A DNA stretch of 33,816 bases, taken from Candidatus Nitromaritima sp. (GTDB lineage: Bacteria; Nitrospinota; Nitrospinia; Nitrospinales; VA-1). Made by a program: the position numbers and the translations under genes. The DNA lies in NCBI GenBank assembly GCA_041938985.1, contig JBGTUV010000002.1, positions 1 through 33,816 of the forward strand, read 5' to 3'. Each line of letters starts with the position of its first letter. The stretch's first letter is position 1. The notes below the pieces were generated by a model that searched no databases, was not told where the DNA came from, and saw only the letters and a program-made list of their open reading frames with translations. This document shows, one piece after another, positions 13,647 to 31,920 of this stretch.

Positions 13647-14999
13647 TTAATCGAAAGCTAATGGAAGACCTATTAAAAACTCCAAATACTTCTTCTTTAT
13701 GACCAGTTCGTACTTTGCTCGTATTTCCTCGCTCTGAGCGCGGGCCAATTTGGATTTACTTTCTAAAAAGTCATGACTGGTAAAATTACCCCTTTCATAA
13801 TTGCGAGTAATTATACGAAAGGCCTCCAACTGTGCCTCAAGACCTCTGGCAGTAGCTTCTTTCCCCGCAATTGCCGCCTCAATATCATTTAATGCAATAG
13901 AGATCCGGTTCTTTAGCTCCTTCTTTTGGTTCTCATAAACTTTCTGATTGATGTCAAAATCGATCATTGCCTTTTTTACGGCCGACCTGCCTCTTAAGCG
14001 ATCGAAAATTGGAACCGAAGCCGTAAATCCTATAAAATTGATCTTGTTATTGTCGAGTTGTGTCCAAAAATCGTTGTTGATAAAGGTTCCCGTATCTGGA
14101 TTAAAGATAACATCGTCTTGCCCTAAAATCCCAAAGTAAAAAGTACTAAAGTTATAGTTAAAGCTGAGCTGAGGGTAAAAAGAAGAACGCTCTATACGCA
14201 CCTGTTTCTCGCTTATTTGAGTTTGCAGCTCTGACGATCGCAAAATTGGATTGTTCCGCACTGCCTGGTCAAAGAGTTGATCAGGAGTATCAGACAATAA
14301 CGTACCATCCTCAACCTGATCAAGCGGTGAGATGTCAAAATCTACTATATCCTCAATATCGAGAAGCTCTTTTAGACGTATTAAACTATTGTCTACATTG
14401 GTCTGCGCAAGAATAGCTTCCTTGTAGTCTAACGAATTTGTCGATTGAAACTCCAATAGTTCACTTTTTGAGACCAAACCCTTATCAAACAGTGCTTGTA
14501 ATCTAATTATTTGCTTATCGCTAATTTCTTGCTGTTCTTTGGCTACTTCTAATATTTCCTTATTCAACAATACCTCCAAATAAAGATCTGTTATTTGCAA
14601 AACCGTCTCATAGATTATTCTTTCCGACTCCGCAAGGCCCTTTTGTTGAATTAGCTCGGCCTGCTGAATACTGACATTTTTTCTAAAGCCGTTAAATAAG
14701 ACCAATGTAGAGTTAAGGCTAAAGTTAGAGGAGCGACTTTCTTGTTGCCCGATTCCTGTTGAAACATCGAAAGAACTGCCCAATCTATAGCTTTGAGAAG
14801 CATTAAAGTTCAAATCTGGAAAACGATCGAGCTTTGCTGCAGTAAGGTCTTGTTCATTCTTTAGATTCTCCAACTTTTGGGCAACTACATCAATATTGTT
14901 CTCCCGGGCATGCGCAATACAGCGTTCCAGAGACCATAATTGCTGGCCATAGCTTAATCCAAAAGCCATACAAGACACGATAAGTACCAGGTTTTTCAT
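13647..14999 (-). CDS. TolC-family outer membrane efflux protein
   Basis: 450 aa with a signal peptide. The N-terminus is typical of Bacteroidota outer-membrane factors (LWSLERCIAHARENNIDV). Repeated coiled-coil-rich halves are present. There is a 4-nt overlap with the upstream RND permease gene. Confidence 0.85.
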   Translation of the reverse strand: MKNLVLIVSCMAFGLSYGQQLWSLERCIAHARENNIDVVAQKLENLKNEQDLTAAKLDRFPDLNFNASQSYRLGSSFDVSTGIGQQESRSSNFSLNSTLVLFNGFRKNVSIQQAELIQQKGLAESERIIYETVLQITDLYLEVLLNKEILEVAKEQQEISDKQIIRLQALFDKGLVSKSELLEFQSTNSLDYKEAILAQTNVDNSLIRLKELLDIEDIVDFDISPLDQVEDGTLLSDTPDQLFDQAVRNNPILRSSELQTQISEKQVRIERSSFYPQLSFNYNFSTFYFGILGQDDVIFNPDTGTFINNDFWTQLDNNKINFIGFTASVPIFDRLRGRSAVKKAMIDFDINQKVYENQKKELKNRISIALNDIEAAIAGKEATARGLEAQLEAFRIITRNYERGNFTSHDFLESKSKLARAQSEEIRAKYELVIKKKYLEFLIGLPLAFD

Positions 15000-17900
15000 C
15001 TCTTAAGTTTTGCAAACTGCATATATAGCAGTGGTATTAAGTACAAGCTAATGAAGGTTCCGATTAACATTCCTCCTATCACTGTCAAAGCAAGAGGACG
15101 CTGTAAAAGACCTCCCAATCCATCGATAAACAGAAATGGTACTAAGGCCAAAATAGTGGTAAGTGAAGTCATGACTATGGGTTTCAAACGTAGCTTACTA
15201 CCTTCTTTCACTGCCTCCTCTAGTGGTTTACCTTCTTTTCGCAAAAGGTTAATGGTGTGGATTTTTAATATACTATCGTTAATAATTATGCCGCTCATAA
15301 CCACAATCCCTATCATGGACATTAAATTTATAGTTCCCCCAAAAAGCCATAATAATAATAGGGCTCCACCAATATCGATTGGAACCTCTAGGATAATGAT
15401 CAGGGGTTGCCAAAAGGATTCGAACTGAGCAGCCATTATCAAGTATAAAAGCAGCAATGAGACCGTTATAACAACGGCCAATTCCCCGGCTAATTCTTGT
15501 TTATAGAACCAATTACCATCAAACTTTATATCATAGGGACTAGGCTTAAACCGCTCACGAATTAAATCCATCTGCCTCTCGACATCATTAGGTGAGTTCA
15601 TCTCAAACTCTAAATATTCTCCAATTCTAGAACCGATTATAGACCTGTATTGATTGTCGTTTCTAACCTCGATAAGGTTGCTTACCGCAATCTGTTTCCC
15701 TTCTTCATTCATAACAAAAAGATCGCTAAAAATGGATTCAAAATTGTCAGCTTGGTATACTAGATTGATAGGAATGAAGGACTCAGCCGTCTTGAGATCG
15801 TCTATAAAGTTCTCTCCCAAGGTGGTTTTTAGCTCGGAAAGCAGATCGGCATAATCAACCTTATATAAGAGCAGATTTTCGTGCAGTATTTCTATAGCCA
15901 CAGTTACTTTAGTAGGTATTTCAGAGCTAGTAGTATTACCGAAGAGAACAGCAATATCAGGCAACTCCTTTACTTGAGGCACTTCTAGGGATGATTTAGG
16001 GTACACCTTGGCTATTAGCTCTCTATTATCAGAACCAAAAATATACTCAAATGCTGTCTTTGGTTTACTAAAGCCAAAATTAGCCTTGGGATATTGTTGA
16101 CTCAGTTTCTCTGCAAGTTGTCGTTGACTCCGTTTTATCTTTGCATTGGTCCCTGCATTTAAATAAATCCTGGCCTCTGATGGACTTTTAACCAGCTCTG
16201 ACTGCAACAAATATTGGGTTTCGCCGATTTCCGCAAATTGGGTCTGAATATCATCAACTCCGGAGATCAGGCTTGCAATACGAACCTGACTCTCCTGTAA
16301 ATTTACGGGCTCATTCCAGTCAATAGTCAATTGAGCTTCACCTTGTTCCAAATCTGGCAGCTGCTCGTAACTAATAAGTTGAAAGAACAGCAGTGCGCAC
16401 ACGATACCCACCAAAGAAACCAAGTATACAACCCAAGGTGATTTTGAGAAGTACGCATATCCCTTCACATACATATTCTCCAATCCATTATTCTGCAAGC
16501 GACCCTTTAACCAACGATCGAATCCAAACTCCCTATGGTAAAGTTGCTTGTACAAAACTGGTATAATAAGAATTGAAACCACAAGGGAACTCCCTAGACC
16601 GAGTGAAACAGCAATAGCCTGATCATAGAACAGAGCTCCGGTTATCCCGCTTAAAAAGATAAGAGGCAAAAACACGGAACAAGTTGTAAGAACAGAGCTT
16701 ATTAAAGGAGAAATGATCTCATTGGTACCTTTAACACACGCCTCTGATATCGAGTGGTCATTTTCTAGTTTTTGAGCGATATTATCTGCAACAATAATGG
16801 CATTATCTATCATCATTCCAATGCCGAGAATTAGACCCGACAACGATATAATGTTTACCGAAAGCCCCAAAACATACATTAACAATAAGCTCAAAACTAG
16901 GGACAAGGGTATTGCAATGGCAATGATTAATGGAGATTTTAAGTCCTTTAAAAAGAAGAACAGGATCAAAATTGCGAATAAACCTCCCAGTAGCAGACTG
17001 GATTTTAGGTTATCGATTGAAAGTTTTAACAATCTGGATTGATCTTGATTAGTTTTAAACTGCAACTCAGGATAATCTGCTCTTAACGTCTGCAAAAGCA
17101 AATCCAGCTCTTCTTGCACCTTGTAAACCTGGGTTTCGGCTTGTTTGATGATCGCGAAATTTATACTACGCTGCCCGTCTACGAATACATTGCCCTTCTC
17201 GCGCTGAATCCCCATCTCTATGTCCGCCAATTCCTGCATCTGAAACAATTTGCCCTCTAAATTCAAGTAGAGTGATCTTATATCATCAACATCTCGAAGT
17301 GGATTGGTAAAGCTAAAATTGTATTGATAAATTCCATTCTGGATCACCAAATTCCCCTGGTCAAAATTGTTCTGCTTTATCGCCTCTATTAAAGTATTAT
17401 TGGTAATACCCAGAGACCTAAGTTTGTCAAGCTTCGGACGTATACGCACCTCATTCTTTACTTGACCATTAATATCTGCAAAAGCAATATCCGGAAGTTG
17501 TTCCAAGCGCTTCTTAAGTACCGTTTCTGCAAACAAACTCAGTTCTAAAAAGTCTAGTTTCGTAAAACCATCTTTCAAACTCACTGATAGATTTACAATA
17601 GGAACATCTGTCAGTGAAGCTTTGACAACCCTGGGACGGTCAAGGTCCCGAGGTAAGACATTAAGTGAAGCATCTACTTTTTCATTAGCCTCAACAAAGG
17701 CATAATCGGTATTCGTGCCATAGTCGAACTGTAATTTTAAAGTCGCAAATCCATCCCTGGTCTCACTTCGGATATCCTTTAAATTGCTCAGCTGCAATAA
17801 GCTGTTACGCAAAGGCCTGACTACGTTGGTCTCTAATTCTCTGGCGGTACTGTTAGGATATGCAAGTTGAACGCTAATCTCTGGTACTGCGATATCTGGC

Positions 17901-18004
17901 ATTAATGATGTAGGTATCTGAATGGCCGAAACGACTCCTAAGACAATAAATGCCATAGAAATCATCAGCACTGCAACCGGTCGATCTATTAGGAACTTGA
18001 CCAT
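14996..18004 (-). CDS. RND efflux transporter permease subunit (AcrB/CzcA superfamily)
   Basis: 1002 aa. N-terminus FLIDRPVAVLMISMAFIVLG. Two large periplasmic loops alternate with clusters of TM helices. A TM4-like motif GIGMMIDNAIIVADNI is present. Confidence 0.9.
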   Translation of the reverse strand: MVKFLIDRPVAVLMISMAFIVLGVVSAIQIPTSLMPDIAVPEISVQLAYPNSTARELETNVVRPLRNSLLQLSNLKDIRSETRDGFATLKLQFDYGTNTDYAFVEANEKVDASLNVLPRDLDRPRVVKASLTDVPIVNLSVSLKDGFTKLDFLELSLFAETVLKKRLEQLPDIAFADINGQVKNEVRIRPKLDKLRSLGITNNTLIEAIKQNNFDQGNLVIQNGIYQYNFSFTNPLRDVDDIRSLYLNLEGKLFQMQELADIEMGIQREKGNVFVDGQRSINFAIIKQAETQVYKVQEELDLLLQTLRADYPELQFKTNQDQSRLLKLSIDNLKSSLLLGGLFAILILFFFLKDLKSPLIIAIAIPLSLVLSLLLMYVLGLSVNIISLSGLILGIGMMIDNAIIVADNIAQKLENDHSISEACVKGTNEIISPLISSVLTTCSVFLPLIFLSGITGALFYDQAIAVSLGLGSSLVVSILIIPVLYKQLYHREFGFDRWLKGRLQNNGLENMYVKGYAYFSKSPWVVYLVSLVGIVCALLFFQLISYEQLPDLEQGEAQLTIDWNEPVNLQESQVRIASLISGVDDIQTQFAEIGETQYLLQSELVKSPSEARIYLNAGTNAKIKRSQRQLAEKLSQQYPKANFGFSKPKTAFEYIFGSDNRELIAKVYPKSSLEVPQVKELPDIAVLFGNTTSSEIPTKVTVAIEILHENLLLYKVDYADLLSELKTTLGENFIDDLKTAESFIPINLVYQADNFESIFSDLFVMNEEGKQIAVSNLIEVRNDNQYRSIIGSRIGEYLEFEMNSPNDVERQMDLIRERFKPSPYDIKFDGNWFYKQELAGELAVVITVSLLLLYLIMAAQFESFWQPLIIILEVPIDIGGALLLLWLFGGTINLMSMIGIVVMSGIIINDSILKIHTINLLRKEGKPLEEAVKEGSKLRLKPIVMTSLTTILALVPFLFIDGLGGLLQRPLALTVIGGMLIGTFISLYLIPLLYMQFAKLKR

Positions 18005-18012
18005 AGCAAATA

Positions 18013-19200
18013 TTATAGGAGTTTAAATACCATATATCGTTTTTCATCTTCCTCTTCTTGTTCCAGTACGGGAAAATGCAGGCCTTCCTCTGTGACAAAA
18101 AAATTGTCCCAGATCTGTATTTGTTCATGAGGGAGTTTATAAGAGAATACGGCTTCTGTTTCCAAATCTAGAACAACTAAAGACAAGCCAATCAGCTCAG
18201 CAGTTTCTTTCTCTGTTTCTGCATCAATTATCCTTCGAGATCCATGTTTAAAAAGCCGATAAATGTATCTTCCATTTGGATCTATGGCCATTGTCAAATA
18301 GGTAGGTGATTGATCTGGATTAGGCCCAATACTTATCCCCCCTTCAAAGGTTTTAACAAGAGTATTGTCAAAATACTGCTGGATAGTGGATACTTCTAGA
18401 TCAGAATAGCCCGCATAATAGCTGGCAATCTTCTCATCTTTTCTAAAATGATAAATGCTGTCTCCTATCTCATAGCTGGTGTATAAGAGGTCACCATCTC
18501 TAACAATGTAAAAACCCATGTTTCTAATTCCACCGTTTTCGGCAGTAACCGTATTGTGAGCTAATATCTCGTCATAACCAGACACTAACTCGCGTTCATC
18601 CATATACACCTTTACCACCTCTTTAGATTTTATATCGTATACAACTCGCTTGAAATTGGGCTTTTGTTGGTCTGGCAATACTTGACTGAATCCACAATCC
18701 AATTGATCACCCCTTAGTTGAGTAGCTTGGTCAAGATGAAAGGTTTTTCTTTTAAAGAACCCAGATTGTGATGTTAATTCTGTTTTGTCTTTAACCACCC
18801 CAAACTTGTCAATTATAAAGTAGGCATCCAGATTCGTGGCAAAAATGCTGTCCCAATTTTGCACAAAATAACTCAGGTGACCATACCTTAGTGGCAATTG
18901 ATTAGGACCCTCTTGGTCAAGTACTATCTTATGCACTAGCACTCCTGAATCATAATGATAGGCATAGATGCTGTGATTTTTGCGGTTGAAGAAAGTAAAA
19001 TAAAGACTGTCATTCAGCTCAGTCAGGTTTGGCTGTAAGTACTCGAACGAGGTTTCATTGTCAAGCGCAAATATCTTATCTGTTTGCCGAGTTAATTGTG
19101 GCTTTATTGGCACTTCTCTCTGGGAATTATCAGGACCACAAGCTAAGTATAGCAAGAAACAGCTAATGCCCATAAATTTTAATTTGAAGCTCAAAGTCAA
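18013..19200 (-). CDS. DUF4221-like beta-propeller-type lipoprotein embedded in the RND operon
   Basis: 395 aa with lipobox LYLAC-G. The sequence is rich in aromatic and beta-strand residues. It shares the C-terminal block LSLVVLDLETEAVFSYKL with the paralogs at 21006, 30444 and 32116. Its start directly abuts the MFP stop (19200/19201). Confidence 0.7.
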   Translation of the reverse strand: MTLSFKLKFMGISCFLLYLACGPDNSQREVPIKPQLTRQTDKIFALDNETSFEYLQPNLTELNDSLYFTFFNRKNHSIYAYHYDSGVLVHKIVLDQEGPNQLPLRYGHLSYFVQNWDSIFATNLDAYFIIDKFGVVKDKTELTSQSGFFKRKTFHLDQATQLRGDQLDCGFSQVLPDQQKPNFKRVVYDIKSKEVVKVYMDERELVSGYDEILAHNTVTAENGGIRNMGFYIVRDGDLLYTSYEIGDSIYHFRKDEKIASYYAGYSDLEVSTIQQYFDNTLVKTFEGGISIGPNPDQSPTYLTMAIDPNGRYIYRLFKHGSRRIIDAETEKETAELIGLSLVVLDLETEAVFSYKLPHEQIQIWDNFFVTEEGLHFPVLEQEEEDEKRYMVFKLL

Positions 19201-20376
19201 TTAGTTTGAATTAAATACACCCTCGACTCTAGCATCATGGGCCAAATTTAAATTGCCAGATACAATTATAGAATCCCCTACTTTTAAACTCCCTGGTTTA
19301 AGCGCATAGTGAGAATTATTCTCAGCTATCACATCTACATAATTCCATTTTGCCGATCCGTTCTCATAGACAAACACCACCTCACGGTTAGAACGCAGCA
19401 CCAAAGCTTCTTTAGGAACTACAAAAACATTATCTAGAGGTTGGTTTATAAACACTTTGGCATTCATCCCGTCGTAAAGCCTGTTTCCAGCGTCTTCTAT
19501 AGCTGCGCGGATAGTGATAAGACCGTTCCCGTCTACTAAGGGGTTGACAGAAGTGATTAAACCAGTGTATGTAGCTTGGTCATCAGAAAACGGAACAACA
19601 TTTATCGCCTGCCCGATCGAAACAAAGTTAAATTCAGCTTCAAGCACAGCGAAAACAACATCCAGATTTTGCTGTTCGACCAAGGTACAAAACGCATCTG
19701 CTGAGGTTATATAATCACCTGCTCGGGTTTCAAGGTTGGCCACAAGGCCTGAAAAAGGAGCGCGGACATAGGTCTGTCCTAATTGTAATTTTGCCTCGTT
19801 TAAAGCATTGGCGGCCTCTTGCATTCCAGATCTTAGTTTTAAATTCTTTAAAACCTCATCAGGAATATTGTCTAGTCCGTTCATAGAAGCCCCGTAATTG
19901 ATCTTATCTTCTTCAAATTGGGCTTTGGCCTTATCGAGCTGAATTTGAGCCTTATCTACTGCATTGATCTGTATGGCATTGTCTAATTGGGCCAATAGCT
20001 GGCCCTTGATCACTCTTTGGCCGTTACGCACATTGATTGTAGCGATCTGCCCATTGATCTCGAACCTAAGCTCACTTTTCTGTCTTGATTCAATTTTACC
20101 ATTCGATATCAACTGTTTATCAAAAACTTGCTGTTCTAACGCTACAATTTGTACTTGCGGAGCACTTTTGTCGAAGTTAGAAAGCTGTTCTTCCTGGATT
20201 GCAGCATTGGGGTCATTCTTACAACTACTGACCAAAAGTAAACCTGCAATATAGCATGTACTTATTGTGATACGAGATGGAATCAAAGATCCATAAAAAT
20301 TGAACATGGGGCTGATCTTCATTTTAGGCAACTTAAGAAGAGTAATAATTACACTTGGTAATTCGCCCATTAACAA
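19201..20376 (-). CDS. RND efflux periplasmic adaptor (membrane fusion protein, HlyD family)
   Basis: Lipoyl-hairpin-like GQIATINVRNGQRVIKGQLLAQLD, a coiled-coil segment, and YVRAPFSGLVANL. The ORF-track start is a TTG. A more likely start is the ATG at 20322 (MKISPMF..., lipobox LLVSSC). Confidence 0.85.
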   Translation of the reverse strand: MLMGELPSVIITLLKLPKMKISPMFNFYGSLIPSRITISTCYIAGLLLVSSCKNDPNAAIQEEQLSNFDKSAPQVQIVALEQQVFDKQLISNGKIESRQKSELRFEINGQIATINVRNGQRVIKGQLLAQLDNAIQINAVDKAQIQLDKAKAQFEEDKINYGASMNGLDNIPDEVLKNLKLRSGMQEAANALNEAKLQLGQTYVRAPFSGLVANLETRAGDYITSADAFCTLVEQQNLDVVFAVLEAEFNFVSIGQAINVVPFSDDQATYTGLITSVNPLVDGNGLITIRAAIEDAGNRLYDGMNAKVFINQPLDNVFVVPKEALVLRSNREVVFVYENGSAKWNYVDVIAENNSHYALKPGSLKVGDSIIVSGNLNLAHDARVEGVFNSN

Positions 20377-20545: not shown

Positions 20546-21031
20546 TTATCTACCTCTTAGTTGTTGAGCAAATCTATCAAAGTTCTCCGCTAGGTTAAAG
20601 TAAAAAAACTGACTCAACCTGCCCTCTTCATACTTAAAGAAATAAACCATGGAATTTTTGTAAAAACTAGTATTCACCACTTCAAATCTCTTGTCATAGA
20701 TGATATTATATTTGCCCCTTAAAGCATCGTTTAAGAAGAAATTAGCTTCTTTTTTGGTTTTGGAACTCATTACCAAATAGACAGAAGGATCCCCTCTAAA
20801 AGTCTGTGCTTCCAGTAATCCTTTTATTTTCTCTAGACAGCTTGGACAAATATCCATTGGCAATACCAAATAAATTTCGTTTTGACCACTAATTTCCTGC
20901 CCCGATATATGGTTCAAATAACTCTCGAAATCGGCAGCTATATCGGAATATGCACCAGTCTGCTTACAGGCTAAAAAGAACAGAAGAACAAGACCCCAAA
21001 AAGCCTTAGTCAGATATTTTCGCGTATTCAT
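20546..21031 (-). CDS. CxxC-motif lipoprotein (thioredoxin-like?), paralog A
   Basis: The ORF is open to 21070. The Met at 21031 gives a clean lipoprotein signal (MNTRKYLTKAFWGLVLLFFLAC). The CPSC motif sits in IYLVLPMDICPSCLEK. It is a paralog of 30017-30481 and overlaps the upstream gene's 3' end. Confidence 0.65.
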   Translation of the reverse strand: MNTRKYLTKAFWGLVLLFFLACKQTGAYSDIAADFESYLNHISGQEISGQNEIYLVLPMDICPSCLEKIKGLLEAQTFRGDPSVYLVMSSKTKKEANFFLNDALRGKYNIIYDKRFEVVNTSFYKNSMVYFFKYEEGRLSQFFYFNLAENFDRFAQQLRGR

Positions 21032-22154: not shown

Positions 22155-22182
22155 AAAAAAAACGCATATGTAATACTATGCG
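22155..22182 (-). terminator. weak hairpin plus T8 tract directly after small peptide gene
   Basis: Stem CGCATA/TATGCG (22163-22168 / 22177-22182) with an 8-nt loop. On the minus strand it is followed by TTTTTTTT, which ends 3 nt before the next ATG (22151). Confidence 0.4.
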
Positions 22183-22210
22183 CTTATTTTCTTAATTTAA
22201 TAAGGCCTTA

Positions 22211-22405
22211 TCAATTCGTTTCGATAATAACTGGGTCTAAGCCAATGCAATTTACCCAAAAGTCGATGCAAAAATCATGTCCAGCCATTAGAAACATGTC
22301 AAAAACAGGTTCATCTTGGGCAATGGCTTTCTCAGGGCTAGTAAAAATGGCTACACTTGCAAGTAATCCCATTCCAACAGCTAAGTTTCTCATTTTTCTT
22401 TTCAT
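22211..22405 (-). CDS. small secreted peptide, 2 Cys (P4)
   Basis: 64 aa. Sec-type signal MKRKMRNLAVGMGLLASVAIFTSPEKAIA, then an acidic/hydrophobic ~35-aa tail with C-x6-C (DFCIDFWVNCIG). It leads an operon and shares upstream elements with 31687-31920. Confidence 0.55.
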   Translation of the reverse strand: MKRKMRNLAVGMGLLASVAIFTSPEKAIAQDEPVFDMFLMAGHDFCIDFWVNCIGLDPVIIETN

Positions 22406-22505: not shown

Positions 22506-22522
22506 TTGCGCTAAAAGTGCAA
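22506..22522 (-). promoter_or_regulatory. shared 17-nt motif TTGCAC-N5-GCGCAA (copy upstream of P4)
   Basis: The minus strand reads TTGCACTTTTAGCGCAA. It lies ~100 nt upstream of the P4 ATG and 14 nt after the signal peptidase stop. Confidence 0.6.
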
Positions 22523-22535: not shown

Positions 22536-23588
22536 TCAGCGGATAATTTTAACTACTTTTCCTTGAAGAAAATTAAACGGTACTACTCCAAAATTACGAG
22601 AATCAATTGAGCCATCTCGGTTGTCGCCTAAGACGAAAACATAGTCCTGCTTAAATGTATGCAAATTAGTTTCATTGCCAGAAGGAACAGGAGTTTGCCA
22701 ATCCTCAAAATTCTCTAGGATATACTTGTAGAGTGGATAATTCTCCTTATTGATTAGCACAGTCAGACCTTCCCCAGGAACTATAAGAGGTCCATAATTA
22801 TTCGCATCCCAATTTGGGTGTTGACTCCCTCCCAGCAGGCGGGAACCTTTTGTAATTGTGTCCGGACCAATGCTTAGGTTCTTATTTGCCTCCTCGTTCA
22901 CAAATACCCGATATTCTGAATTTGATAAATTTCTTATTGACCTCTTTCCCAGAGTGTTGGTGACAAGATAGTTTTTGCAGTATTGCTCTTTATCGGGAAG
23001 TAGGCTGCCATTTATTGAAACTTGCCCATTTGCTATTAGAAGGGTGTCTGTGGGTAAACCAACGATTCTTTTTACATAATACTTATCGATTTGGTCAATA
23101 GCCTTAAAAACGACAATATCCTCTCTTTGATAATCTTTAAAGGGATTCAATGAAGTAAAGGGTTGGAAGTTTATCGTGTCTACATGAGATTTAAATAAAT
23201 TACCAAAAACAGGGATCTCTTTCCAACTTCTGGGTATACGAGAACCGTAGGCTACCTTGTTGGTAAGAACATATTCTCCTTTAGAAATAGTTCTTTCCAT
23301 GGAGGCTGTCGGCACGTAGTAGTAGTCAAAAAATAAAGTACGTATTAACACAGCAAATAGTACGGGTGTCGCAATGTAAAACAGAAGCGATATTAATTTT
23401 AAAACAATGGATGGAAGCCGAGGTCTTAGAATAGAATACAGATAGCCCGTAGTAACAAAATCGAATACAATCAACAAAAAGATAAACACCAATACGAGCC
23501 GCGACCAGACTAAAAATACAAGGCTAACTACCACGAGCAAAACGAAAATGATCTTTCTGCCTGGGTTTATATTTGATGCTTCTGGCAA
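22536..23588 (-). CDS. lepB: signal peptidase I (S26 family) with extended multi-TM N-terminus
   Basis: 350 aa. Catalytic Ser context PTASMERTI, Lys context YVKRIVGLPTD, and box E GDNRDGSIDSRNFG. There is no in-frame ATG upstream of the catalytic Ser, so a TTG start at 23588 is inferred. About 95 aa of hydrophobic N-terminal extension. Confidence 0.85.
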   Translation of the reverse strand: MPEASNINPGRKIIFVLLVVVSLVFLVWSRLVLVFIFLLIVFDFVTTGYLYSILRPRLPSIVLKLISLLFYIATPVLFAVLIRTLFFDYYYVPTASMERTISKGEYVLTNKVAYGSRIPRSWKEIPVFGNLFKSHVDTINFQPFTSLNPFKDYQREDIVVFKAIDQIDKYYVKRIVGLPTDTLLIANGQVSINGSLLPDKEQYCKNYLVTNTLGKRSIRNLSNSEYRVFVNEEANKNLSIGPDTITKGSRLLGGSQHPNWDANNYGPLIVPGEGLTVLINKENYPLYKYILENFEDWQTPVPSGNETNLHTFKQDYVFVLGDNRDGSIDSRNFGVVPFNFLQGKVVKIIR

Positions 23589-23633: not shown

Positions 23634-24041
23634 TCAACAGATCGTACCTCTCATAATTAACAAAAGGACCACCTTTGACTTTTCAAAATAGACATTGGCT
23701 TTTTGCTCAAAAAAGCCAGTGATTTCATTATTGTACTGTAAGGTAATGAAAGTTCTCTGCCCCGGTTTGATCGGGCTAGAATCCCAGTCGATAACTGTAC
23801 AATCACAGTCAGCATCAATAGATTCTATTCGAATTGGATTAGTTCCATCGTTTGTGATCTCGAAGGTAGCTTTAGATTCACCGCTCTGAGCAACTCTACC
23901 AATATCAATTATATTTTCCTTCAAGGTTGCCTTTACTTCAACAGGTGCATCTTCCTTTTTTAACCATATATTATATGCCTTAATACCCGAAAGGGACAAA
24001 AGAATTACAAGCGCTACCGTCCATATAATCTTTTCTTTCAT
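23634..24041 (-). CDS. DUF1573-like protein
   Basis: 135 aa with an N-terminal TM/signal anchor. Typical DUF1573 pattern: IDIGRV..G....TFEITNDGTNPIRIESIDADCDCT..DW...IKPGQ...ITLQY. Confidence 0.75.
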   Translation of the reverse strand: MKEKIIWTVALVILLSLSGIKAYNIWLKKEDAPVEVKATLKENIIDIGRVAQSGESKATFEITNDGTNPIRIESIDADCDCTVIDWDSSPIKPGQRTFITLQYNNEITGFFEQKANVYFEKSKVVLLLIMRGTIC

Positions 24042-25229: not shown

Positions 25230-25336
25230 TTACGAATTCCGTGAAACATTAAATGTAATGAGATTAAATACAATAAATAAAGTAGCGCAGTCCATAAAGG
25301 GCCGACACTACTTAGCTATTCAGGTTTTAGTTTTTA

Positions 25337-25561: not shown

Positions 25562-25578
25562 GAATATTAGTTTTAGGA

Positions 25579-25864: not shown

Positions 25865-25881
25865 TTGCGCATATAGTGCAA
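25865..25881 (-). promoter_or_regulatory. shared 17-nt motif TTGCAC-N5-GCGCAA (copy upstream of P1)
   Basis: The minus strand reads TTGCACTATATGCGCAA, ~64 nt upstream of the P1 ATG. Confidence 0.6.
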
Positions 25882-25985
25882 ATATGTTTTTTGGAACGAA
25901 ATTTCTCGGCTGATATCTTTTGATCGGAATTTTAAAAAGAACAACTGTTCTGTGTGAGAATACCTCAACGGAAATTTTAGAGCAA

Positions 25986-26660
25986 CTAAATAATACCCAT
26001 AGATTTAGCCTTTAAGATAAGGGCTCGGTTGCTTTGATCTAAAACCCCAAGCTTTTCTTTAAGCCGCTTTTTACGATACTCTATAGCTCGTTTAGATAGC
26101 AGCAAAGACGCTCTCATTTCTTTATTCGTTGAGCCTTGGTTTAACTCGTTGAGCATTTTTAGGTCGGTTTTATCCATACCTAGTTCCTTTAAGGGATTTT
26201 TATTGAGATAGGCTGTTGTACTTTGGCAATAATAATTGCCGCCAGTAACCACGGCCGCTATAGCACGATCTATCTCCCATGCTTTGATACTGCTCTTTAC
26301 TAAGCAACCCTTGGGATTGAGCTCTGCAAAAATACGGTGCAGGTGCCACCAGGAATAATTTGCTGTAGCCACAATAAGCGGCGTTTCACTGTATTGCTTA
26401 AGTAGCAGGTTTCCCACATCGATACCGTTGAATAAATTGTATTGTGAACTGGCGGGAATTCGAAGATCCAAAATCACCAGATCAAATGGGGTTACGCTTT
26501 TGGATATATAGAAATAAGCTTTCTCACAATTATTGGCTTCATAAACACTAAGAACCTTTTGAGCTTGCTGGACGTAACTCTCTAGTTTAGATACGTAAAC
26601 ATTACGCACAAGAGGTTCGTCCTCTACCAATAGTACTCTGAAAGGCTTGTACATAGACAA
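25986..26660 (-). CDS. LuxR/NarL-family response regulator (orphan)
   Basis: 224 aa. Receiver (RVLLVEDEP, DLVILDLRIP) plus a C-terminal GerE-type HTH (LNELNQGSTNKEMRASLLLSKRAIEYRKKRLKEKLGV). No adjacent histidine kinase. Confidence 0.88.
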   Translation of the reverse strand: MSMYKPFRVLLVEDEPLVRNVYVSKLESYVQQAQKVLSVYEANNCEKAYFYISKSVTPFDLVILDLRIPASSQYNLFNGIDVGNLLLKQYSETPLIVATANYSWWHLHRIFAELNPKGCLVKSSIKAWEIDRAIAAVVTGGNYYCQSTTAYLNKNPLKELGMDKTDLKMLNELNQGSTNKEMRASLLLSKRAIEYRKKRLKEKLGVLDQSNRALILKAKSMGII

Positions 26661-26775: not shown

Positions 26776-29700
26776 TCAAAATGCATCATCAAATTTTCTA
26801 GCTCTTCTTAAGCTAAATAGGGGCAGATAAATTAGTATTCCTACAAAAGAAAAAAGCAGACCGCCTATAGTCCCCGCTCCTAGGGCAAACCAAAAAACTT
26901 CATTCTGCCCGTCAGCCACAAAGGGTATAAAACCGAGAATGGTAGAGATAATGGTAAGTGAAATTGGGAATATCTTCTGCCTGAAGGCTTTTATATAAGC
27001 TGAGAGTCCATCCATACCGGTCTTTCGCAAAAAGTTGAAATCATTTATAATAAATATAGATGCATTGACAGTGAGTCCACTAAGCAAAACAAAACTGGCC
27101 AAACCGCCTTGATCAAAATTATAATCAAACCAGTAAAAGGTCAAAAACACCCCAATAAAAGAAATGGGAATCACGCTTAAAATTATAAATGGCTGCGTAA
27201 AGCTTTCGAAAAGTGTTGCGCAAAGCAGGTATATTATGGCAATAACCAAAAGAAGCAGCCAAGTATATTGCGAGGTTTCCTCTGTTTTGAAAAAACTTAG
27301 ACTCCTCTGGCTACGCTCAAAGGTAAAACCAATGGGTAATGTAGGATTAATACTGTCTAGGGTCTTGCTCAAAAATCGGCTTCCGAATTTTGCAGCACCA
27401 GTATATTGAAATTTTATTTTTCTCAGATATTCCTGATTCTCTTTATCGATATTCTCTTGCTCTTTTACCTTTACCACCGTTCCTACATTGGCGAAGCGTT
27501 TTGGGAAATCAAGACTGTCCATTGGGTTGTTCTTAATATTCCAAAGGTCAAAGTCATAAGCCCTTGTAGATTCAAAACGCAAGGGATAGTTTTGCCCTGC
27601 CAATGTTAAATTAAGATCTGTGTTCTTTTGCAAGCTAACATCTTGTAGTTGCCGCATAAAACGCTGTGGCGAACTGCCTTGCAATGCCAGGGCCTGTTTG
27701 TCTAAGCTAAACTGATATTCATAACCGGACTTTCTTGAAAAGTCACTATTGTCAGTGATTTGGGCTTCCTGTATACGGGGATGTGCCTCTAGTGCTTCCT
27801 TTAATTGCAGAGCTAATTCACTTAATTTTTCATAATTGTAGCCTCTAGCCTGTACCGAATAATTATTGATAGCCCCAACAGCATTACTGTTGTTAAAGCC
27901 TTGTCCAACACCGTAAATACTCCATTCTAGGCCGCCAAAATCTAAGGCTTTTCTAATTAATCTGGCCTTTAGTTGATTAGGAAATGCTGTGTTTACAAAA
28001 TCCTCTTTAAAGGTTATTTCCATACGGGCGTAATCTCCACTATATACATTGGTCACATACCTATCCACTTCGACCATTGGACTCAAATAATTCTCCAAAC
28101 CAAGAAAAACCTCATTCATTTGATGCACTGTGGCTCCTTTTTCCATGCTGCCTATAACATAAAGTTTTGTCTCTTCGTTACGGCTGTAAAAGGCATTCTC
28201 ATAAACGAAGTACGAAAAGAGTCTGAAACTACCCCCTAGATATTTGTCAACAGAAGGCCGTATATGCTCTAAATACCACTCATTACCCAGTGTATTGTTA
28301 TACGCTTTTTGGTACCAGGTTTGATTGCTCTCTAATTGTTTTGGAAGCATAAAGAAAGGCACACCAAAGATCAGGATGAGCAAGATGATAGCCACTTTCT
28401 TATACCCGAGTAAGAACCGTAGTAAATTTGCATATTTTGGATAGAACCAGACCGAGAATCTCTCAATCGCTACATTTTTTTGCTTTGTCTTGTATGCGAT
28501 CCGCTTTAGAATCGCGGGCACCATATAAAATGCAATTACCAAGGAGACGCCAAGGTTTATACTTATAACTTTAGCAAAGTCTATCAAATTTAGTTTGTAC
28601 TCATCATCCAGAAAGTTGATTACGCTCAAAGCACCCATTGTAGTTAAGGTTGAGGCCAATATGGGAATAATGATTTTTTTGTTTCCCTGCATTCTGAGGT
28701 GATCTGTCATTACGATAATATTGTCAATGATAATGCCTAAAGAAATTGTTATTCCCGCCAGAGAATACAACTGAATCTCCACCCTGAATAAATAATAGAA
28801 TACAAAAGCAATACAAATATTTGCGACCAGGCAGATAACCACCGTAAAGAGATATCGCAAAGACAAGCTCACCAAACCTATGAACAATAGTAGGATTATG
28901 AGGGTGTAAATACTGCGCTTATAGATCTTACTTAGTTCTTCCTGTAGGTATGTGGTACTGTCGTAATCTTTTACGATTGTATAGTCTGATGGCAGTGTTT
29001 TCTGAATCTCATCCAACAGTAGGACAACCTCTTTTGCAAGGGCGATAGTGTTTGCGTCTTTGGTCGCGTTCAAACCAATAGTGATGGCATTTTTACCATT
29101 GACACGGTAATAGCTTCTGGCTTCTTGTTCCTGCTTGCGTATCTGAGATATCTCATCGAGGTAAACTATCTTTCCTCCAACCTCAGTTAAGGGAATATGC
29201 CATTGTAATTGCTGCGGCCCAGGTTTAACCACCACGTTGAATTCCAGCATACTTTGATGCACCTTTCCTATCGAAACTCGTTCGAACAGGCGGTCTACTG
29301 CAAAGACAAGCTGCTGCTTCCCTATATTTAAGGCCCTTAATTTATCATTGTTAAAACTAATAAGGAACTCTAAAGGATTGGCACCATTAACGTTCACTTG
29401 ATCAATGCCACTCAAAGAACCGATCTGGGGAACAATACGCGCACTTACTGTCTCTTGTATCTCCAAACGAGAACGCGGGGCATTAACACTATAAGATAAA
29501 AAAACACCTTGTTGATCATCATCCGGGCGGTTAACACTGATCACAGGATAACTACAGTTAACCGGAAAGCTTTTATACAATTGCCGTATCACAGTGGCTA
29601 CTTCGAAACGAGCTATGTCTATATCGGCATATTTATCAAAACTGATCTGTACATATCCTCTAGATTTCGAAGACCTTGAACTTATCTTTTCTATATTCCG

Positions 29701-29904
29701 AAGGGTACTAAAACCACCTTCCAAGGTAGCTGTGATCTGCTGTTCGACAGATTTAGAAGATGCCCCAGGCCAACTGTAATCAACACGTATAGAAGGAGGT
29801 GTTTTACTTGGGTTTAAGCGCAATGACAAACGCGAAGCCAAACCGAGACCTATTATGGTCAAGACCATAATAACAACTAATATTTTAAAGGAAGAAAACT
29901 TCAA
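26776..29904 (-). CDS. RND efflux transporter permease subunit (AcrB superfamily), no adjacent adaptor or outer membrane factor
   Basis: 1042 aa. Two periplasmic loop/TM cluster halves. TM4-like motif GIIIDNIIVMTDHL. TTG start inferred, as there is no in-frame ATG near the N-terminus. Confidence 0.88.
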   Translation of the reverse strand: MKFSSFKILVVIMVLTIIGLGLASRLSLRLNPSKTPPSIRVDYSWPGASSKSVEQQITATLEGGFSTLRNIEKISSRSSKSRGYVQISFDKYADIDIARFEVATVIRQLYKSFPVNCSYPVISVNRPDDDQQGVFLSYSVNAPRSRLEIQETVSARIVPQIGSLSGIDQVNVNGANPLEFLISFNNDKLRALNIGKQQLVFAVDRLFERVSIGKVHQSMLEFNVVVKPGPQQLQWHIPLTEVGGKIVYLDEISQIRKQEQEARSYYRVNGKNAITIGLNATKDANTIALAKEVVLLLDEIQKTLPSDYTIVKDYDSTTYLQEELSKIYKRSIYTLIILLLFIGLVSLSLRYLFTVVICLVANICIAFVFYYLFRVEIQLYSLAGITISLGIIIDNIIVMTDHLRMQGNKKIIIPILASTLTTMGALSVINFLDDEYKLNLIDFAKVISINLGVSLVIAFYMVPAILKRIAYKTKQKNVAIERFSVWFYPKYANLLRFLLGYKKVAIILLILIFGVPFFMLPKQLESNQTWYQKAYNNTLGNEWYLEHIRPSVDKYLGGSFRLFSYFVYENAFYSRNEETKLYVIGSMEKGATVHQMNEVFLGLENYLSPMVEVDRYVTNVYSGDYARMEITFKEDFVNTAFPNQLKARLIRKALDFGGLEWSIYGVGQGFNNSNAVGAINNYSVQARGYNYEKLSELALQLKEALEAHPRIQEAQITDNSDFSRKSGYEYQFSLDKQALALQGSSPQRFMRQLQDVSLQKNTDLNLTLAGQNYPLRFESTRAYDFDLWNIKNNPMDSLDFPKRFANVGTVVKVKEQENIDKENQEYLRKIKFQYTGAAKFGSRFLSKTLDSINPTLPIGFTFERSQRSLSFFKTEETSQYTWLLLLVIAIIYLLCATLFESFTQPFIILSVIPISFIGVFLTFYWFDYNFDQGGLASFVLLSGLTVNASIFIINDFNFLRKTGMDGLSAYIKAFRQKIFPISLTIISTILGFIPFVADGQNEVFWFALGAGTIGGLLFSFVGILIYLPLFSLRRARKFDDAF

Positions 29905-30016
29905 GTTGGTTAAGAATTACCATTGTAGGGAGAGGCTTAAATTAAACAAAATGGTGGTTATTTGCCTTAACAACTACGAAATATAAAGAATATCAATTAA
30001 GCAGGATGTTCTAAAA

Positions 30017-30481
30017 TTATAGTGCTCGTTTGTCTAAATACATTTTTGCTTCTTCAATTTTAAAGTCGCTTATGTTCAGATGATAAATGCATTTACCATC
30101 TTTCATATCAACAATCATTGGTTTGGAAAAACCTGTTTCATATTGTGATATCACAAACTTATCATCAACTAAAATGTTATCATACAAATCATACAAATTT
30201 TGAATTTGTAATACCCTTTCCGTATCAAAAGTTTCACCAACTAAGATTAGCTGTACATTGTATTTTGTACTACTTAACAAACCTATATTTAACTTTATGC
30301 AGTTATCACAGCCGTTGATTGGAAGCAAAAAATAAATATTCTCTCCCTCTAAATTGTCAACTTGAAGTTCTTGTGTTAAGTAAGCAGTAAAATCTTCACA
30401 GTAAGCATAAGCACCTTCATTTTTACAAGAAACCAATATCTGGTTAAAAATTAATATGAGTAAAAATGTTCTCGCTCTCAT
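30017..30481 (-). CDS. CxxC-motif lipoprotein (thioredoxin-like?), paralog B
   Basis: 154 aa with lipobox ILVSC. CDNC motif in IYFLLPINGCDNCIKL. It aligns with 20546-21031 and overlaps the upstream gene by 38 nt. Confidence 0.65.
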   Translation of the reverse strand: MRARTFLLILIFNQILVSCKNEGAYAYCEDFTAYLTQELQVDNLEGENIYFLLPINGCDNCIKLNIGLLSSTKYNVQLILVGETFDTERVLQIQNLYDLYDNILVDDKFVISQYETGFSKPMIVDMKDGKCIYHLNISDFKIEEAKMYLDKRAL

Positions 30482-31610
30482 CTTCGATATTTTTAGAGTT
30501 TATCAATATACCAGAAGGTGTTGGTGTTACGGCAAAAAAGGTAAATGCTGATCCATCGAAAGCCATTTCGCCAATTTTAATCATGTTCTCATCAAAAGCG
30601 ATAATTGAGAAACTCCTGTTAAAAGTTGGGTTATTTAATCTATTGGTTAACGGATTCTTTAAGGGTTGTTCATGTACAACCACTCTGTAAAATCTATTCG
30701 ATTCCTCCTCGTACATAAGCCGATTATACGACCCATTGGTTGTTATAAAGCTGATATACTTTTGGGCATCTCGCTTTCTTGGTAATTTTTCAAAAGTGTT
30801 TAAAAAATTACTCTTGCCGTCAAAAACCCCTACTAAACTGTCATTATTTGCCTGATACTTATAAATGTTGTGATCGTATTTCATAGACAAAAAATAGATC
30901 CCTTTATCAAAAAAGGGAATGTAGCTTAAATTGTAATTATTGGGTCTTAAAAAATCTTGATTCGCGTATTGGTCTGGCCATTCCCCGAATGATTCTAAAA
31001 AATTCTCGCTCTCCAGATTAAATTTTCTTGCAAAAGCCTTTTTGTAAAATTCCTTATCAGAATCAAAATTGTAAGGTGGAAATGTTCTAAAATGAATATT
31101 CTTGTTTGTAAGATCGAAATGAAATGAATATGAATCAACAGTTGTAATTTCGAAAAAGTCATCAGTTTGTCCACTTTCATATACATCATTGATATTCCAT
31201 ATCTTCTTAATAACTCCCTTGCTATTTATTAAGCAGAGTTTGGCATTTTTATTCGAGAAAAGGAAAATAGAATCCAGATTCACAGCTAAAAAATCACCAA
31301 ATTCCAATTTGCGCTTTAGGAATTGGTCCGTATTGTAAAAATCTAGAATGGTGTCAATTTTCTTTGCTGTGAGATTGACAAGTTCCAACTTCTGTTGCGA
31401 GGTATTAAGCGTAATAAAATACAGGGAGTCCTTTTGACGCAGCACCTTCTTAGATTTCCCCGTGCCTAAATAATTCCAATCTTTTATTGAAAAGGTATCT
31501 GTACTTAATTTTTCAAGCTTTTGATTCTCCTTATAATCTATTCCAACTTCTTTAGAGTTTCGGGAACAAGAAAAAAGGATAATTACCAGTGAAATAAACC
31601 AAATCTTCAT
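30444..31610 (-). CDS. DUF4221-like beta-propeller-type lipoprotein
   Basis: 388 aa with lipobox ILFSC. C-terminal block FSIIAFDENMIKIGEMAF. Same length class as 21006-22151 and 32116-33282. Confidence 0.7.
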   Translation of the reverse strand: MKIWFISLVIILFSCSRNSKEVGIDYKENQKLEKLSTDTFSIKDWNYLGTGKSKKVLRQKDSLYFITLNTSQQKLELVNLTAKKIDTILDFYNTDQFLKRKLEFGDFLAVNLDSIFLFSNKNAKLCLINSKGVIKKIWNINDVYESGQTDDFFEITTVDSYSFHFDLTNKNIHFRTFPPYNFDSDKEFYKKAFARKFNLESENFLESFGEWPDQYANQDFLRPNNYNLSYIPFFDKGIYFLSMKYDHNIYKYQANNDSLVGVFDGKSNFLNTFEKLPRKRDAQKYISFITTNGSYNRLMYEEESNRFYRVVVHEQPLKNPLTNRLNNPTFNRSFSIIAFDENMIKIGEMAFDGSAFTFFAVTPTPSGILINSKNIEDESENIFTHINF

Positions 31611-31617
31611 ATAGTAA

Positions 31618-31647
31618 ATTAAAAAAGGAAGAATACTCTTCCTTTTA
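31618..31647 (-). terminator. hairpin plus T-tract directly after small peptide gene
   Basis: Stem AGGAAGA/TCTTCCT (31626-31632 / 31637-31643) with a 4-nt loop, extendable by A/T pairs. The minus strand continues TTTTTTAATTT. It ends ~10 nt before the next ATG (31610). Confidence 0.5.
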
Positions 31648-31686
31648 CTTGTAATTAAATTCTTTTAGTCAATGCATTAAAGAATG

Positions 31687-31920
31687 TTATTGGTTTGTAC
31701 GAAACTGATAACATATCCAAGTAGTGATATCACAAAGATCACCCACACCTCCACACATATATCTATACCCCGAAAAGCACTCTTCAGTTTCTTGAATAAC
31801 TTCAGTATTACCTCTCAAACTACGCGAAGAAGTATCTTTTGCGTTGATACTATCCAGATTTAGTATTGACGGTGCAAACAAAAAGGCGAATACGATTGCG
31901 AATAATACATTTTTTTTCAT
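31687..31920 (-). CDS. small secreted 4-Cys peptide (P3)
   Basis: 77 aa. Signal MKKNVLFAIVFAFLFAPSILNLDSINA. The mature part has C-x7-C-x6-C-x6-C (ECFSGYRYMCGGVGDLCDITTWICY). It leads an operon. Confidence 0.6.
   Translation of the reverse strand: MKKNVLFAIVFAFLFAPSILNLDSINAKDTSSRSLRGNTEVIQETEECFSGYRYMCGGVGDLCDITTWICYQFRTNQ

Follow-up and report, generated by a model that had tools for sequence, protein, structure and literature searches.

Thioredoxin-like accessory proteins are known from bacteriocin clusters, such as PedC or the accessory CxxC protein of the pediocin type and BdbA and BdbB of the sublancin cluster. In Bacteroides, genome annotations place the small NVEALA proteins (PF14055) next to lipoproteins described as "6-bladed beta-propeller" (DUF5128, DUF4934 or TolB_like); we know of no CxxC lipoprotein or RND pump linked to these loci. 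The mau cluster of methylamine dehydrogenase combines a Cys-rich light chain, a beta-propeller heavy chain and the thioredoxin-like MauD, and the copper efflux system CusCFBA pairs an RND pump with the small periplasmic substrate-delivery protein CusF. The heat-stable enterotoxins STa and STb of Escherichia coli are exported by Sec, oxidised in the periplasm by DsbA and released by TolC-dependent efflux through MacAB, a pump of the ATP-binding cassette (ABC) type. Passages in reviews such as PMC5985334 treat MacAB-TolC as the exporter of STII. Here, we describe a 33,816-nt window (contig JBGTUV010000002.1, assembly GCA_041938985.1, positions 1 to 33,816) in which genes for small secreted cysteine peptides, designated P1 to P4, are followed by genes for DUF4221-like or DUF5128 lipoproteins, for predicted redox proteins and, in two cases, for RND efflux components. 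All coordinates refer to this whole window, and L-numbered loci are related contigs sampled for comparison.

The explanation that we favour, at a rough probability of 0.4, is that Sec-exported disulfide peptides would be handled in the periplasm by a pair of lipoproteins, with the RND/TolC machinery as a lineage-specific addition. Nearly all genes from 33.3 down to 13.5 kb lie on the minus strand, in three predicted operons that have common control elements and each open with one or two pre-peptide genes. In the order of transcription, string A encodes P3, a 388-aa lipoprotein, a 154-aa CxxC lipoprotein and a 1042-aa RND permease, followed by a LuxR-type response regulator. The middle module encodes P1, P2, a DUF5128 lipoprotein, a DUF1573 protein and signal peptidase I. 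String C encodes P4, a 381-aa lipoprotein, a 161-aa CxxC lipoprotein, an RND adaptor, a DUF4221 lipoprotein, an RND permease and a TolC-family protein. The features are as follows.

32011..32027, no strand assigned: palindrome TTGCAC-N5-GTGCAA, candidate operator, 91 nt 5' of the P3 start codon
31935..31970, minus strand: DUF805b RNA motif (RF02914) in the 5' leader of P3, 15 nt ahead of its ATG (40.6 bits; gathering score 35.6)
31687..31920, minus strand: P3 pre-peptide, 77 aa, with a Sec-type signal (..SINA|K) and a 50-aa acidic mature part with 4 Cys
31623..31646, minus strand: terminator- or attenuator-like stem-loop with a 10-bp stem and a U run after it, in the P3-lipoprotein spacer
30444..31610, minus strand: DUF4221-like lipoprotein, 388 aa, lipobox LFSC; its orthologues are 70%, 45% and 28-34% identical; PDB 3S9J matched by the subfamily profile, E 1.8e-8
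30017..30481, minus strand: predicted thioredoxin-fold CxxC lipoprotein, 154 aa, motif CDNC, 38-nt overlap with the preceding gene
26776..29904, minus strand: divergent RND permease of the "RND_A" type, 1042 aa (ACR_tran 312 bits), with no adaptor or outer-membrane factor (OMF) gene of its own
25986..26660, minus strand: LuxR/NarL-type response regulator, 224 aa (family-model matches and homologue search)
25865..25881, no strand assigned: palindrome TTGCAC-N5-GCGCAA, 65 nt 5' of the P1 start codon
25579..25800, minus strand: P1 pre-peptide, 73 aa, 4 Cys in the mature part, 41% identical to P2
25337..25561, minus strand: P2 pre-peptide, 74 aa, 4 Cys in the mature part
25280..25313, minus strand: stem-loop followed by a U-rich run, after P2
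24051..25229, minus strand: DUF5128 lipoprotein (Pfam family name "6-bladed beta-propeller"; Pfam 112 bits)
23634..24041, minus strand: DUF1573 protein with a CxC motif (C79, C81; Pfam 79 bits)
22536..23588, minus strand: signal peptidase I (S26), 350 aa (TIGR02227, 114 bits), inside the cluster
22506..22522, no strand assigned: palindrome TTGCAC-N5-GCGCAA, 101 nt 5' of the P4 start codon
22424..22458, minus strand: DUF805b RNA motif (RF02914) in the 5' leader of P4, 19 nt ahead of its ATG (42.7 bits; gathering score 35.6)
22211..22405, minus strand: P4 pre-peptide, 64 aa, with a signal (..AIA|Q) and a 35-aa hydrophobic, very acidic mature part with 2 Cys
22160..22185, minus strand: 9-bp stem-loop followed by a U run, after P4
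21006..22151, minus strand: DUF4221-like lipoprotein, 381 aa, lipobox LCGC (3S9J, E 1.4e-5)
20546..21031, minus strand: predicted thioredoxin-fold CxxC lipoprotein, 161 aa, motif CPSC, 26-nt overlap with the preceding gene
19201..20376, minus strand: RND periplasmic adaptor (membrane fusion protein, MFP; TIGR01730 172 bits, cutoff 95)
18013..19200, minus strand: DUF4221 lipoprotein, 395 aa, between the adaptor and RND genes (Pfam 35.2 bits; gaps of 0 and 8 nt)
14996..18004, minus strand: RND permease of the "RND_C" type, HAE1-like (ACR_tran 555 bits)
13647..14999, minus strand: TolC-family OMF (OEP 179 bits)
13469..13498, minus strand: terminator-like hairpin closing string C
32116..33282, plus strand: divergently transcribed DUF4221 lipoprotein (Pfam 47.5 bits), which has the palindrome-containing intergenic region in common with P3

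All open reading frames (ORFs) named in the first-pass annotation of this DNA are present at the positions it gave, and its family assignments agree with the ORF list, Pfam and NCBIfam. It had proposed a module repeated in two gene strings. The repetition reflects true homology and not gene order alone: the lipoproteins 21006-22151 and 30444-31610 are 23% identical over 367 aa (E 1e-7), and the CxxC proteins 20546-21031 and 30017-30481 are 29% identical over 110 aa (E 1e-7). The gene overlaps were also correctly placed (30444-30481 and 21006-21031). The count of two was too low, as there are three peptide modules, the third consisting of 25579-25800 and 25337-25561 together with the DUF5128, DUF1573 and signal peptidase I genes. 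A match to the window was found in CP019333.1 (assembly GCA_002163875.1), several metagenome contigs are nearly identical to it, and the closest relatives of the window genes belong to Flavobacteriaceae (Dokdonia ponticola and an uncultured Flavobacteriaceae metagenome-assembled genome, MAG).

The genomic context of CxxC-family members was sampled representative by representative at falling identity. In 11 distinct loci including the window, a small ORF whose product has a signal peptide and two or more Cys is followed by a DUF4221-like gene and then a CxxC gene, so that the gene order on which the first-pass annotation relied is conserved with CxxC proteins down to 23-30% identity. The CxxC identities are 72% in L006-8, 51% in L009, 45% in L023, 30% in the Dokdonia locus L024 and 28-30% in L025, L026 and L027. 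In L011/L012 and L014, they are 22-23% in the alignment and 26-27% by BLASTP; the module also occurs in L030 and L033. Across loci, the CxxC gene frequently overlaps the lipoprotein gene, and the short contigs L019 and L020 have a lipoprotein gene just upstream that overlaps the CxxC gene. Five or six consecutive peptide-lipoprotein pairs are found on contigs such as L011. Within the sampled set, the core unit is thus widespread and not peculiar to this genome. Narrow sequence patterns (two for the peptides and an alignment of the lipoprotein subfamily) found 3 loci in a collection of one genome per species covering 185,579 species, and a metagenome scan with the lipoprotein subfamily alignment also gave 3 loci; the core unit appears to be uncommon in the reference genome collection. 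We hold with high confidence that peptide, DUF4221 lipoprotein and redox protein belong to a single functional unit.

Proteins of about 320-350 aa adjoin the CxxC gene, before or after it, in L011 (10480-11436 and 16624-17583), L026 (8986-10032) and L014 (2066-2782), and gave no Pfam match, the L014 ORF lying outside the scan. A protein of similar size follows a CxxC-like gene in L024 (18392-19390). These proteins, which the window lacks, may represent a fourth, optional component of the module. The CxxC gene of L033 is broken into two ORFs (11100-11602) by a frameshift or a sequencing error.

By inspection, P1 to P4 have signals of the Sec type: the N-terminus is basic, the core is hydrophobic and the cleavage sites resemble AxA (INA|K, AIA|Q, AEA|S, SDA|S). 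The pre-peptides are 64-77 aa long and their mature parts have 35-50 aa, 2 or 4 Cys and a pI of 4.0-4.7. P3 is conserved in seven sequences that retain the Cys pattern, from Flavobacteriaceae genomes, a Cyclobacteriaceae genome and unclassified metagenome contigs, which answers the concern of the first-pass annotation that the small ORFs might lack conservation. Two unclassified metagenome contigs, L006/L007 (40% identity) and L009 (31%), have a P3 homologue ahead of the orthologous lipoprotein gene. Further homologues in this position were found in Dokdonia L024, in the 281-kb metagenome contig L033 and in L023, whose sequence matches the Flavobacteriaceae MAG contig L028, while the Cyclobacteriaceae MAG L030 carries two tandem copies. 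The core of the family reads E-T-x-x-C-x-S-G-x4-C-x-G-x-G-x-L-C-x2-T-x-G-W-D-C. In the L023 homologue, Cys1 and Cys2 are both replaced by Tyr and the last two Cys are retained; this joint loss suggests a C1-C2 / C3-C4 disulfide pairing in the P3 family.

For P4, strains differ by 2 nt, both synonymous, and no homologue was found outside the species; the gene has the palindrome and the DUF805b motif upstream in common with P3. In long-contig loci, the small ORFs ahead of DUF4221, TolB_like and DUF5128 lipoprotein genes likewise have signal peptides and at least 2 Cys. Together, these sequence features indicate that the small peptide ORFs are real genes. P1 is missing from the same-species metagenome contig L004, where about 215 nt have been deleted between P1 and its homologue P2 (window 25563-25778; L004 7722-7746); peptide copy number therefore varies within the species.

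As the first-pass annotation had noted for classical maturation genes, the Pfam scan of the larger ORFs from 13.6 to 33.3 kb gave no maturase of ribosomally synthesised and post-translationally modified peptides (radical SAM/SPASM, YcaO, LanB/C/M, MNIO and others) and no C39-ABC domain. A double-glycine leader system was not found either, the peptides having Sec-type signals and the window scan giving no ABC or C39 gene. Membership of the peptides in NVEALA was rejected, since the PF14055 model did not match P1 to P4 at E<=10; the L011 peptide 15223-15414 ("..VQNVEAC..") scored 13.9 bits (E 0.045), below the gathering score of 27. A beta-defensin match of P2 (E 0.0036, below threshold) was treated as noise. 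The signal peptidase I gene inside the peptide cluster could encode a dedicated paralogue or the housekeeping enzyme.

The CxxC lipoproteins matched neither the Pfam models Thioredoxin, Redoxin and AhpC-TSA nor NCBIfam, and their profile had no match at E<=10 among PDB sequences. An exhaustive HMMER search gave 302 clusters at E<=1e-3; all 150 among those listed are single-domain proteins, mostly of 140-170 aa. In an alignment of 56 sequences, the lipobox Cys and both Cys of the CxxC motif are the sole invariant residues, and Pro121 is conserved in at least 90%. The CxxC motif is present in 144 of the 152 family representatives, most commonly as CEPC, CDPC or CSPC. Judged from these library searches, the CxxC lipoproteins are a new, previously unmodelled family.

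The AlphaFold model (predicted local distance difference test, pLDDT, 72; predicted TM-score 0.71) has the beta-alpha-beta-alpha-beta..beta-beta-alpha topology of thioredoxin. In the model, the CxxC residues 58-61 follow the strand 47-54 at the start of the helix 59-69, and Pro121 stands just before the strand 122-127, in the place of the thioredoxin cis-Pro. Nearly all of the top 50 Foldseek matches in the PDB belong to the thioredoxin superfamily, mostly periplasmic thiol:disulfide oxidoreductases of the CcmG/ResA/TlpA/DsbE type, and the top 30 have probabilities of 0.97-1.0, E-values from 1e-4 and TM-scores of 0.35-0.51. Because the predicted topology, the placement of CxxC and Pro and the structural matches agree, the assignment to the thioredoxin fold is reasonably secure, and we hold it with moderate, not high, confidence. 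A cathepsin C match of the CxxC protein was treated as noise.

The predicted fold fits a thiol-disulfide role such as the first-pass annotation had proposed, and the protein may be an oxidase, an isomerase or a reductase. Oxidising members of this fold class exist, such as M. tuberculosis DsbE, which is also among the Foldseek matches. In the middle module and in L012, the slot of the CxxC lipoprotein is taken by the DUF1573 CxC protein, in the order peptide, lipoprotein, DUF1573. The window protein 23634-24041 matches the NCBIfam OS_HP2 (seleno)protein family weakly, and this match together with the shared slot gives a hint that DUF1573 may be a redox protein.

Among the lipoproteins, 18013-19200 (35.2 bits) and 32116-33282 (47.5 bits) exceed the DUF4221 threshold (PF13970, 23.4 bits), and 21006-22151 and 30444-31610 gave no match to the Pfam DUF4221 model at E<=0.01. 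Nevertheless, calling the latter two DUF4221-like, as the first-pass annotation did, is justified: 21006-22151 and the profile of the 30444 subfamily both match 3S9J, a PDB entry described as "Member of DUF4221 family", and a 14-sequence DUF4221-like profile aligned with the bona fide DUF4221 protein 32116-33282 at an hhalign probability of 97%. These profile comparisons place them as divergent DUF4221 relatives outside the current Pfam model. For the DUF5128 lipoprotein 24051-25229, hhalign gave no relation to the DUF4221-like profile, and we therefore treat it as a different family; its assignment as a propeller follows the Pfam description of DUF5128.

DsbL and DsbI oxidise arylsulfotransferase, and oxidation of the propeller protein itself by the CxxC protein was considered here. 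It was set aside, since the mature DUF4221-like lipoproteins contain a single Cys and are unlikely targets. The peptides with their conserved Cys pairs would then be the obvious substrates of the CxxC protein.

The three operons also share control elements. The 17-nt palindrome TTGCAC-N5-GYGCAA occurs exactly 3 times in the window at no more than one mismatch, against 0.22 expected, and all copies lie 5' of the peptide operons. It is also found 5' of peptide genes in L006 and in Dokdonia L024, beside genes for LuxR-type response regulators and, in L024, directly after one. Homologues of the response regulator 25986-26660 (E<=1e-5) were found only in L006/7 and L024, the loci with the palindrome and DUF805b, and this co-occurrence makes the LuxR-type regulator the probable binder of the palindrome as a candidate operator. 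An IS3-family transposase gene (L006 2367-3505) sits between the response-regulator gene and the peptide gene.

DUF805b is reportedly a candidate cis-regulatory RNA from the 2017 survey by Weinberg and colleagues, named for genes of DUF805 proteins. Besides the two window copies, it is present in L006 (3719-3754 and 14765-14800) and L024 (6306-6340 and 15683-15718) at 43-49 bits (threshold 35.6), and all 6 matches in 147 kb lie 12-25 nt 5' of Cys-peptide genes. As no DUF805 protein gene was seen in the gene lists of the loci with the motif, its name may not reflect its partner here; the association behind the name could be incomplete, or could stem from small ORFs that lack annotation.

Peptide and lipoprotein genes are separated by a strong stem-loop, usually with a U run, in all three window modules and in 13 of the 17 loci with a spacer. 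The hairpin sequences differ between loci and the structure persists. A leaky terminator after the structural genes of bacteriocins and lantibiotics gives an excess of peptide, and the hairpins here would similarly leave the peptide in excess rather than as a 1:1 subunit.

From these elements, the following sequence of events can be proposed. A peptide mRNA would be transcribed from a promoter under the shared palindromic operator, with the adjacent LuxR-type regulator as its probable binder, and the P3 and P4 transcripts would carry the DUF805b element in their leaders. The stem-loop after the peptide gene would let part of the transcription pass, leaving the peptide in excess over the downstream proteins. 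The pre-peptide would cross the inner membrane by Sec and be cleaved by signal peptidase I, of which a copy is encoded in the cluster. In the periplasm, the CxxC lipoprotein, or the DUF1573 CxC protein in the middle operon, would form or shuffle the peptide disulfides, and the cognate DUF4221 or DUF5128 lipoprotein would bind the peptide as a chaperone, adaptor or protective partner. The module appears wired into RND pump operons, one pump having its own DUF4221 protein between adaptor and permease, and the pumps might take the folded periplasmic peptide out through TolC, for secretion, self-protection or both. That the redox protein acts on the peptide cysteines is probable, and that the peptide is released in abundance, and is no stoichiometric subunit, is favoured by a narrow balance. 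Export or expulsion of the peptide by the RND/TolC systems, proposed from gene neighbourhood, is the weakest step and we consider it doubtful. The peptides may act in antagonism or signalling.

Several points weigh against this proposal. It concerns a system predicted from its genes. The thioredoxin fold class and the commonest motif CEPC, which we take to be the ResA active site, are typical of reductants such as ResA and CcmG and hint at a role other than that of a DsbA-like oxidase. Binding of the cognate peptide by the lipoprotein and the propeller fold are both predictions; for 30444-31610, an AlphaFold model from a 4-sequence alignment reached a pLDDT of 37, leaving the fold to follow from DUF4221 and 3S9J membership. 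With an acidic pI, the peptides differ from most cationic bacteriocins. No RND pump is known to carry folded peptides of 4-6 kDa. The RND permease of string A stands without adaptor and OMF genes, and no RND gene lies within 10 kb in 5 of the 11 loci, namely L023/28 (one flank only), L025, L026, L027 and L030, from which it follows that the pump is not obligatory and is either dispensable or encoded elsewhere. The 11 loci are also not phylogenetically independent, so that their RND tally makes the support look stronger than it is.

In the other 6 loci (window, L006-8, L009, L011, L024 and L033), an RND permease is found within 10 kb of the module, in at least 5 arrangements; the association is close there and has outlasted rearrangements. 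String C of the window has a complete tripartite set and, like L007, the order module, MFP, DUF4221, RND and TolC. The embedded DUF4221 protein of the window is 27% identical to the protein in the same position in L006/7, and its RND protein 59%, a faster divergence as expected of a specificity component. In L009, the adaptor and RND genes flank the module. A divergent RND_A permease of about 1040 aa follows the module in window string A and Dokdonia L024; L033 has two modules flanked by both RND types, and L011 has RND_A and an MFP gene upstream of its modules. The RND_A orthologues beside peptide modules are found in L024 (60% identity), L011 (37%) and L033. Compared with E. coli AcrB, both window RND proteins and three relatives retain D407 and have Asn in place of D408 and K940; this may be normal for the subfamily (NF033617-like), and the Asn residues do not show loss of function.

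The best surviving alternative keeps the same core, with the RND pumps protecting the envelope from the cell's own peptide or sharing the regulon on other grounds, and with the peptide staying periplasmic or at the surface or leaving by another exit. It draws on the five pump-free loci, on the incomplete set of string A, on the ordinary domain content of the RND proteins and on the fact that RND substrates are usually small amphiphiles. Three observations point the other way. In L009, the module separates the adaptor gene from the permease gene; the window, L007 and L024 have DUF4221 genes in translational coupling with pump genes (gaps of 0-8 nt, or a 4-nt overlap with the end of the RND gene in L024); and two unrelated RND subfamilies, RND_A and RND_C (19% identity), each recur beside modules. 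We consider this alternative unlikely.

A bolder proposal takes the pump association further. The DUF4221 lipoproteins would be adaptors that pass Sec-delivered, disulfide-folded peptides to RND-TolC, an unrecognised two-step route of secretion across the outer membrane in Bacteroidota. Every peptide would be served by a propeller adaptor and a thioredoxin-like folding lipoprotein of its own, with a response regulator and a DUF805b leader in control. We rate this proposal as somewhat less likely still.

In a further alternative, the peptide is a disulfide-stabilised subunit, ligand or inhibitor of the DUF4221 lipoprotein, the CxxC protein is a dedicated folding factor and the pump exports the product of the complex. 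The task of such a complex would be binding or enzymatic, in the envelope, on the model of methylamine dehydrogenase. Peptide and lipoprotein genes are strictly adjacent, different peptide families are paired with different lipoprotein subfamilies and the thioredoxin-like gene overlaps the lipoprotein gene, all of which would suit a complex, as would the spacing of 8-11 nt without a hairpin between the peptide and lipoprotein genes of L011. Against a complex, 13 of 17 loci have hairpins after the peptide gene, which implies that expression is not stoichiometric, and peptide copy number varies (P1 is absent in L004 and L030 has two copies). There is also no conserved Trp pair of the cofactor type and no MauE- or MauG-like gene. 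This alternative is improbable on balance.

Finally, that these genes have no common function, with spurious or unrelated small ORFs beside DUF4221 paralogues, thioredoxin-like and efflux genes brought together by chance in a variable island, is disfavoured as very improbable: the numerous DUF4221/DUF5128 paralogues in the loci, the insertion sequence that interrupts L006 and the lack of a P4 homologue outside its species would fit, but the P3 core is conserved across distant lineages, a common operator and leader RNA motif stand ahead of the peptide genes much more often than chance would give, and the genes overlap and keep their order in 11 loci.

The interpretation in the first-pass annotation, that Sec-exported peptides are oxidised or chaperoned in the periplasm by the lipoprotein pair and expelled by the RND/TolC machinery, is hence supported in part. 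The predicted thioredoxin fold suits a thiol-disulfide function, with a fold class and motif typical of reductants, and RND genes adjoin the module in six loci but not in the five others. The name "propeller-like" for the 21006 and 30444 proteins stands as family membership, while the fold itself drew no support from the structural model.

Elsewhere in the window, a four-gene regulatory cassette is tandemly duplicated on the minus strand (2222-7510 and 7854-13102). Its copies are 62% identical in the PAS/GAF sigma-54 activator, 47% in the histidine-kinase-like protein, 48% in the receiver-only response regulator and 48% in the small STAS-like protein. A link between these neighbouring PAS/sigma-54 activators and the peptide operons was dropped because no convincing sigma-54 consensus site was found 5' of any peptide gene. 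At the other end (33455-33816), 3' of the DUF4221 gene 32116-33282, a repeat with a 77-nt core extending up to about 108 nt is present three times at a spacing of 135-150 nt, with 69-99% identity and a short internal palindrome in each copy (CATTTTTGCTTCGCAAAAATG).

If the proposal is correct, it would give the first functional context to two large orphan lipoprotein families of Bacteroidota (DUF4221 and relatives), to DUF1573 and to the orphan Rfam motif DUF805b, and would define a new, unmodelled family of thioredoxin-fold lipoproteins. It would also suggest that marine Flavobacteriia and Cytophagia have a large and hypervariable set of small disulfide peptides, which could be antagonistic or signalling. 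Should the pump link hold as well, RND tripartite pumps would secrete folded peptides with the help of periplasmic lipoproteins, and their accepted substrate range would be widened. Even on a conservative reading, the system is compact and testable, with isolate genomes on record for the source organism and for Dokdonia ponticola.

The full-text literature search gave nothing on DUF4221, nothing relevant on NVEALA, DUF5128 or DUF4934 and nothing describing this gene combination. Together with the family-library searches, it bears out the view of the first-pass annotation that no described system has the same composition. The E. coli enterotoxins, named there as a precedent, are comparable in their Sec-signal pre-peptides, the Cys pairs of the mature peptides, a periplasmic thiol-redox step, which is predicted here, and a TolC-family tripartite pump, encoded nearby in the window. 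The precedent fails at the pump, which is RND here and the ABC-type MacB there. The window operons also have their own TlpA/ResA-like lipoprotein where the enterotoxins use the housekeeping DsbA, the DUF4221 lipoprotein has no counterpart in the enterotoxin system, and pump export here is a candidate from gene neighbourhood.

With the bacteriocin clusters, the window shares a cluster-encoded oxidoreductase, presumably for the disulfides of a ribosomal peptide, and a structural gene that comes first and is followed by a leaky terminator or, here, a terminator-like hairpin. Those clusters have double-glycine leaders, C39-ABC exporters and monoderm hosts, whereas the window combines Sec signals, a diderm envelope, acidic peptides, a propeller-family lipoprotein and RND genes. 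The NVEALA loci similarly place a protein of about 75 aa with an N-terminal signal upstream of a lipoprotein from the same broad family group, but P1 to P4 miss the NVEALA model.

The mau cluster likewise joins a small Cys-rich polypeptide to a propeller-family protein and a TlpA-like thioredoxin of its own. In the window, however, there is no Trp pair that could form tryptophan tryptophylquinone and no MauE or MauG, the peptides are hypervariable, hairpins follow their genes, and the partner is a DUF4221-family lipoprotein instead of the heavy chain of methylamine dehydrogenase. CusCFBA has an extra periplasmic component inside an RND operon and provides a conceptual model for the DUF4221 protein between adaptor and permease; CusF is a small metallochaperone, whereas the window component is a 395-aa lipoprotein whose cargo is presumed to be a peptide. 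The leader elements agree with RF02914 in sequence, in a hairpin scoring above the gathering threshold and in their 5' leader position, and depart from its naming in that all six copies precede Cys-peptide genes. The nearest known systems thus each share one or two parts with the window and none matches it in composition. By its predicted function, the region belongs with those clusters for peptide production that have a redox helper of their own.

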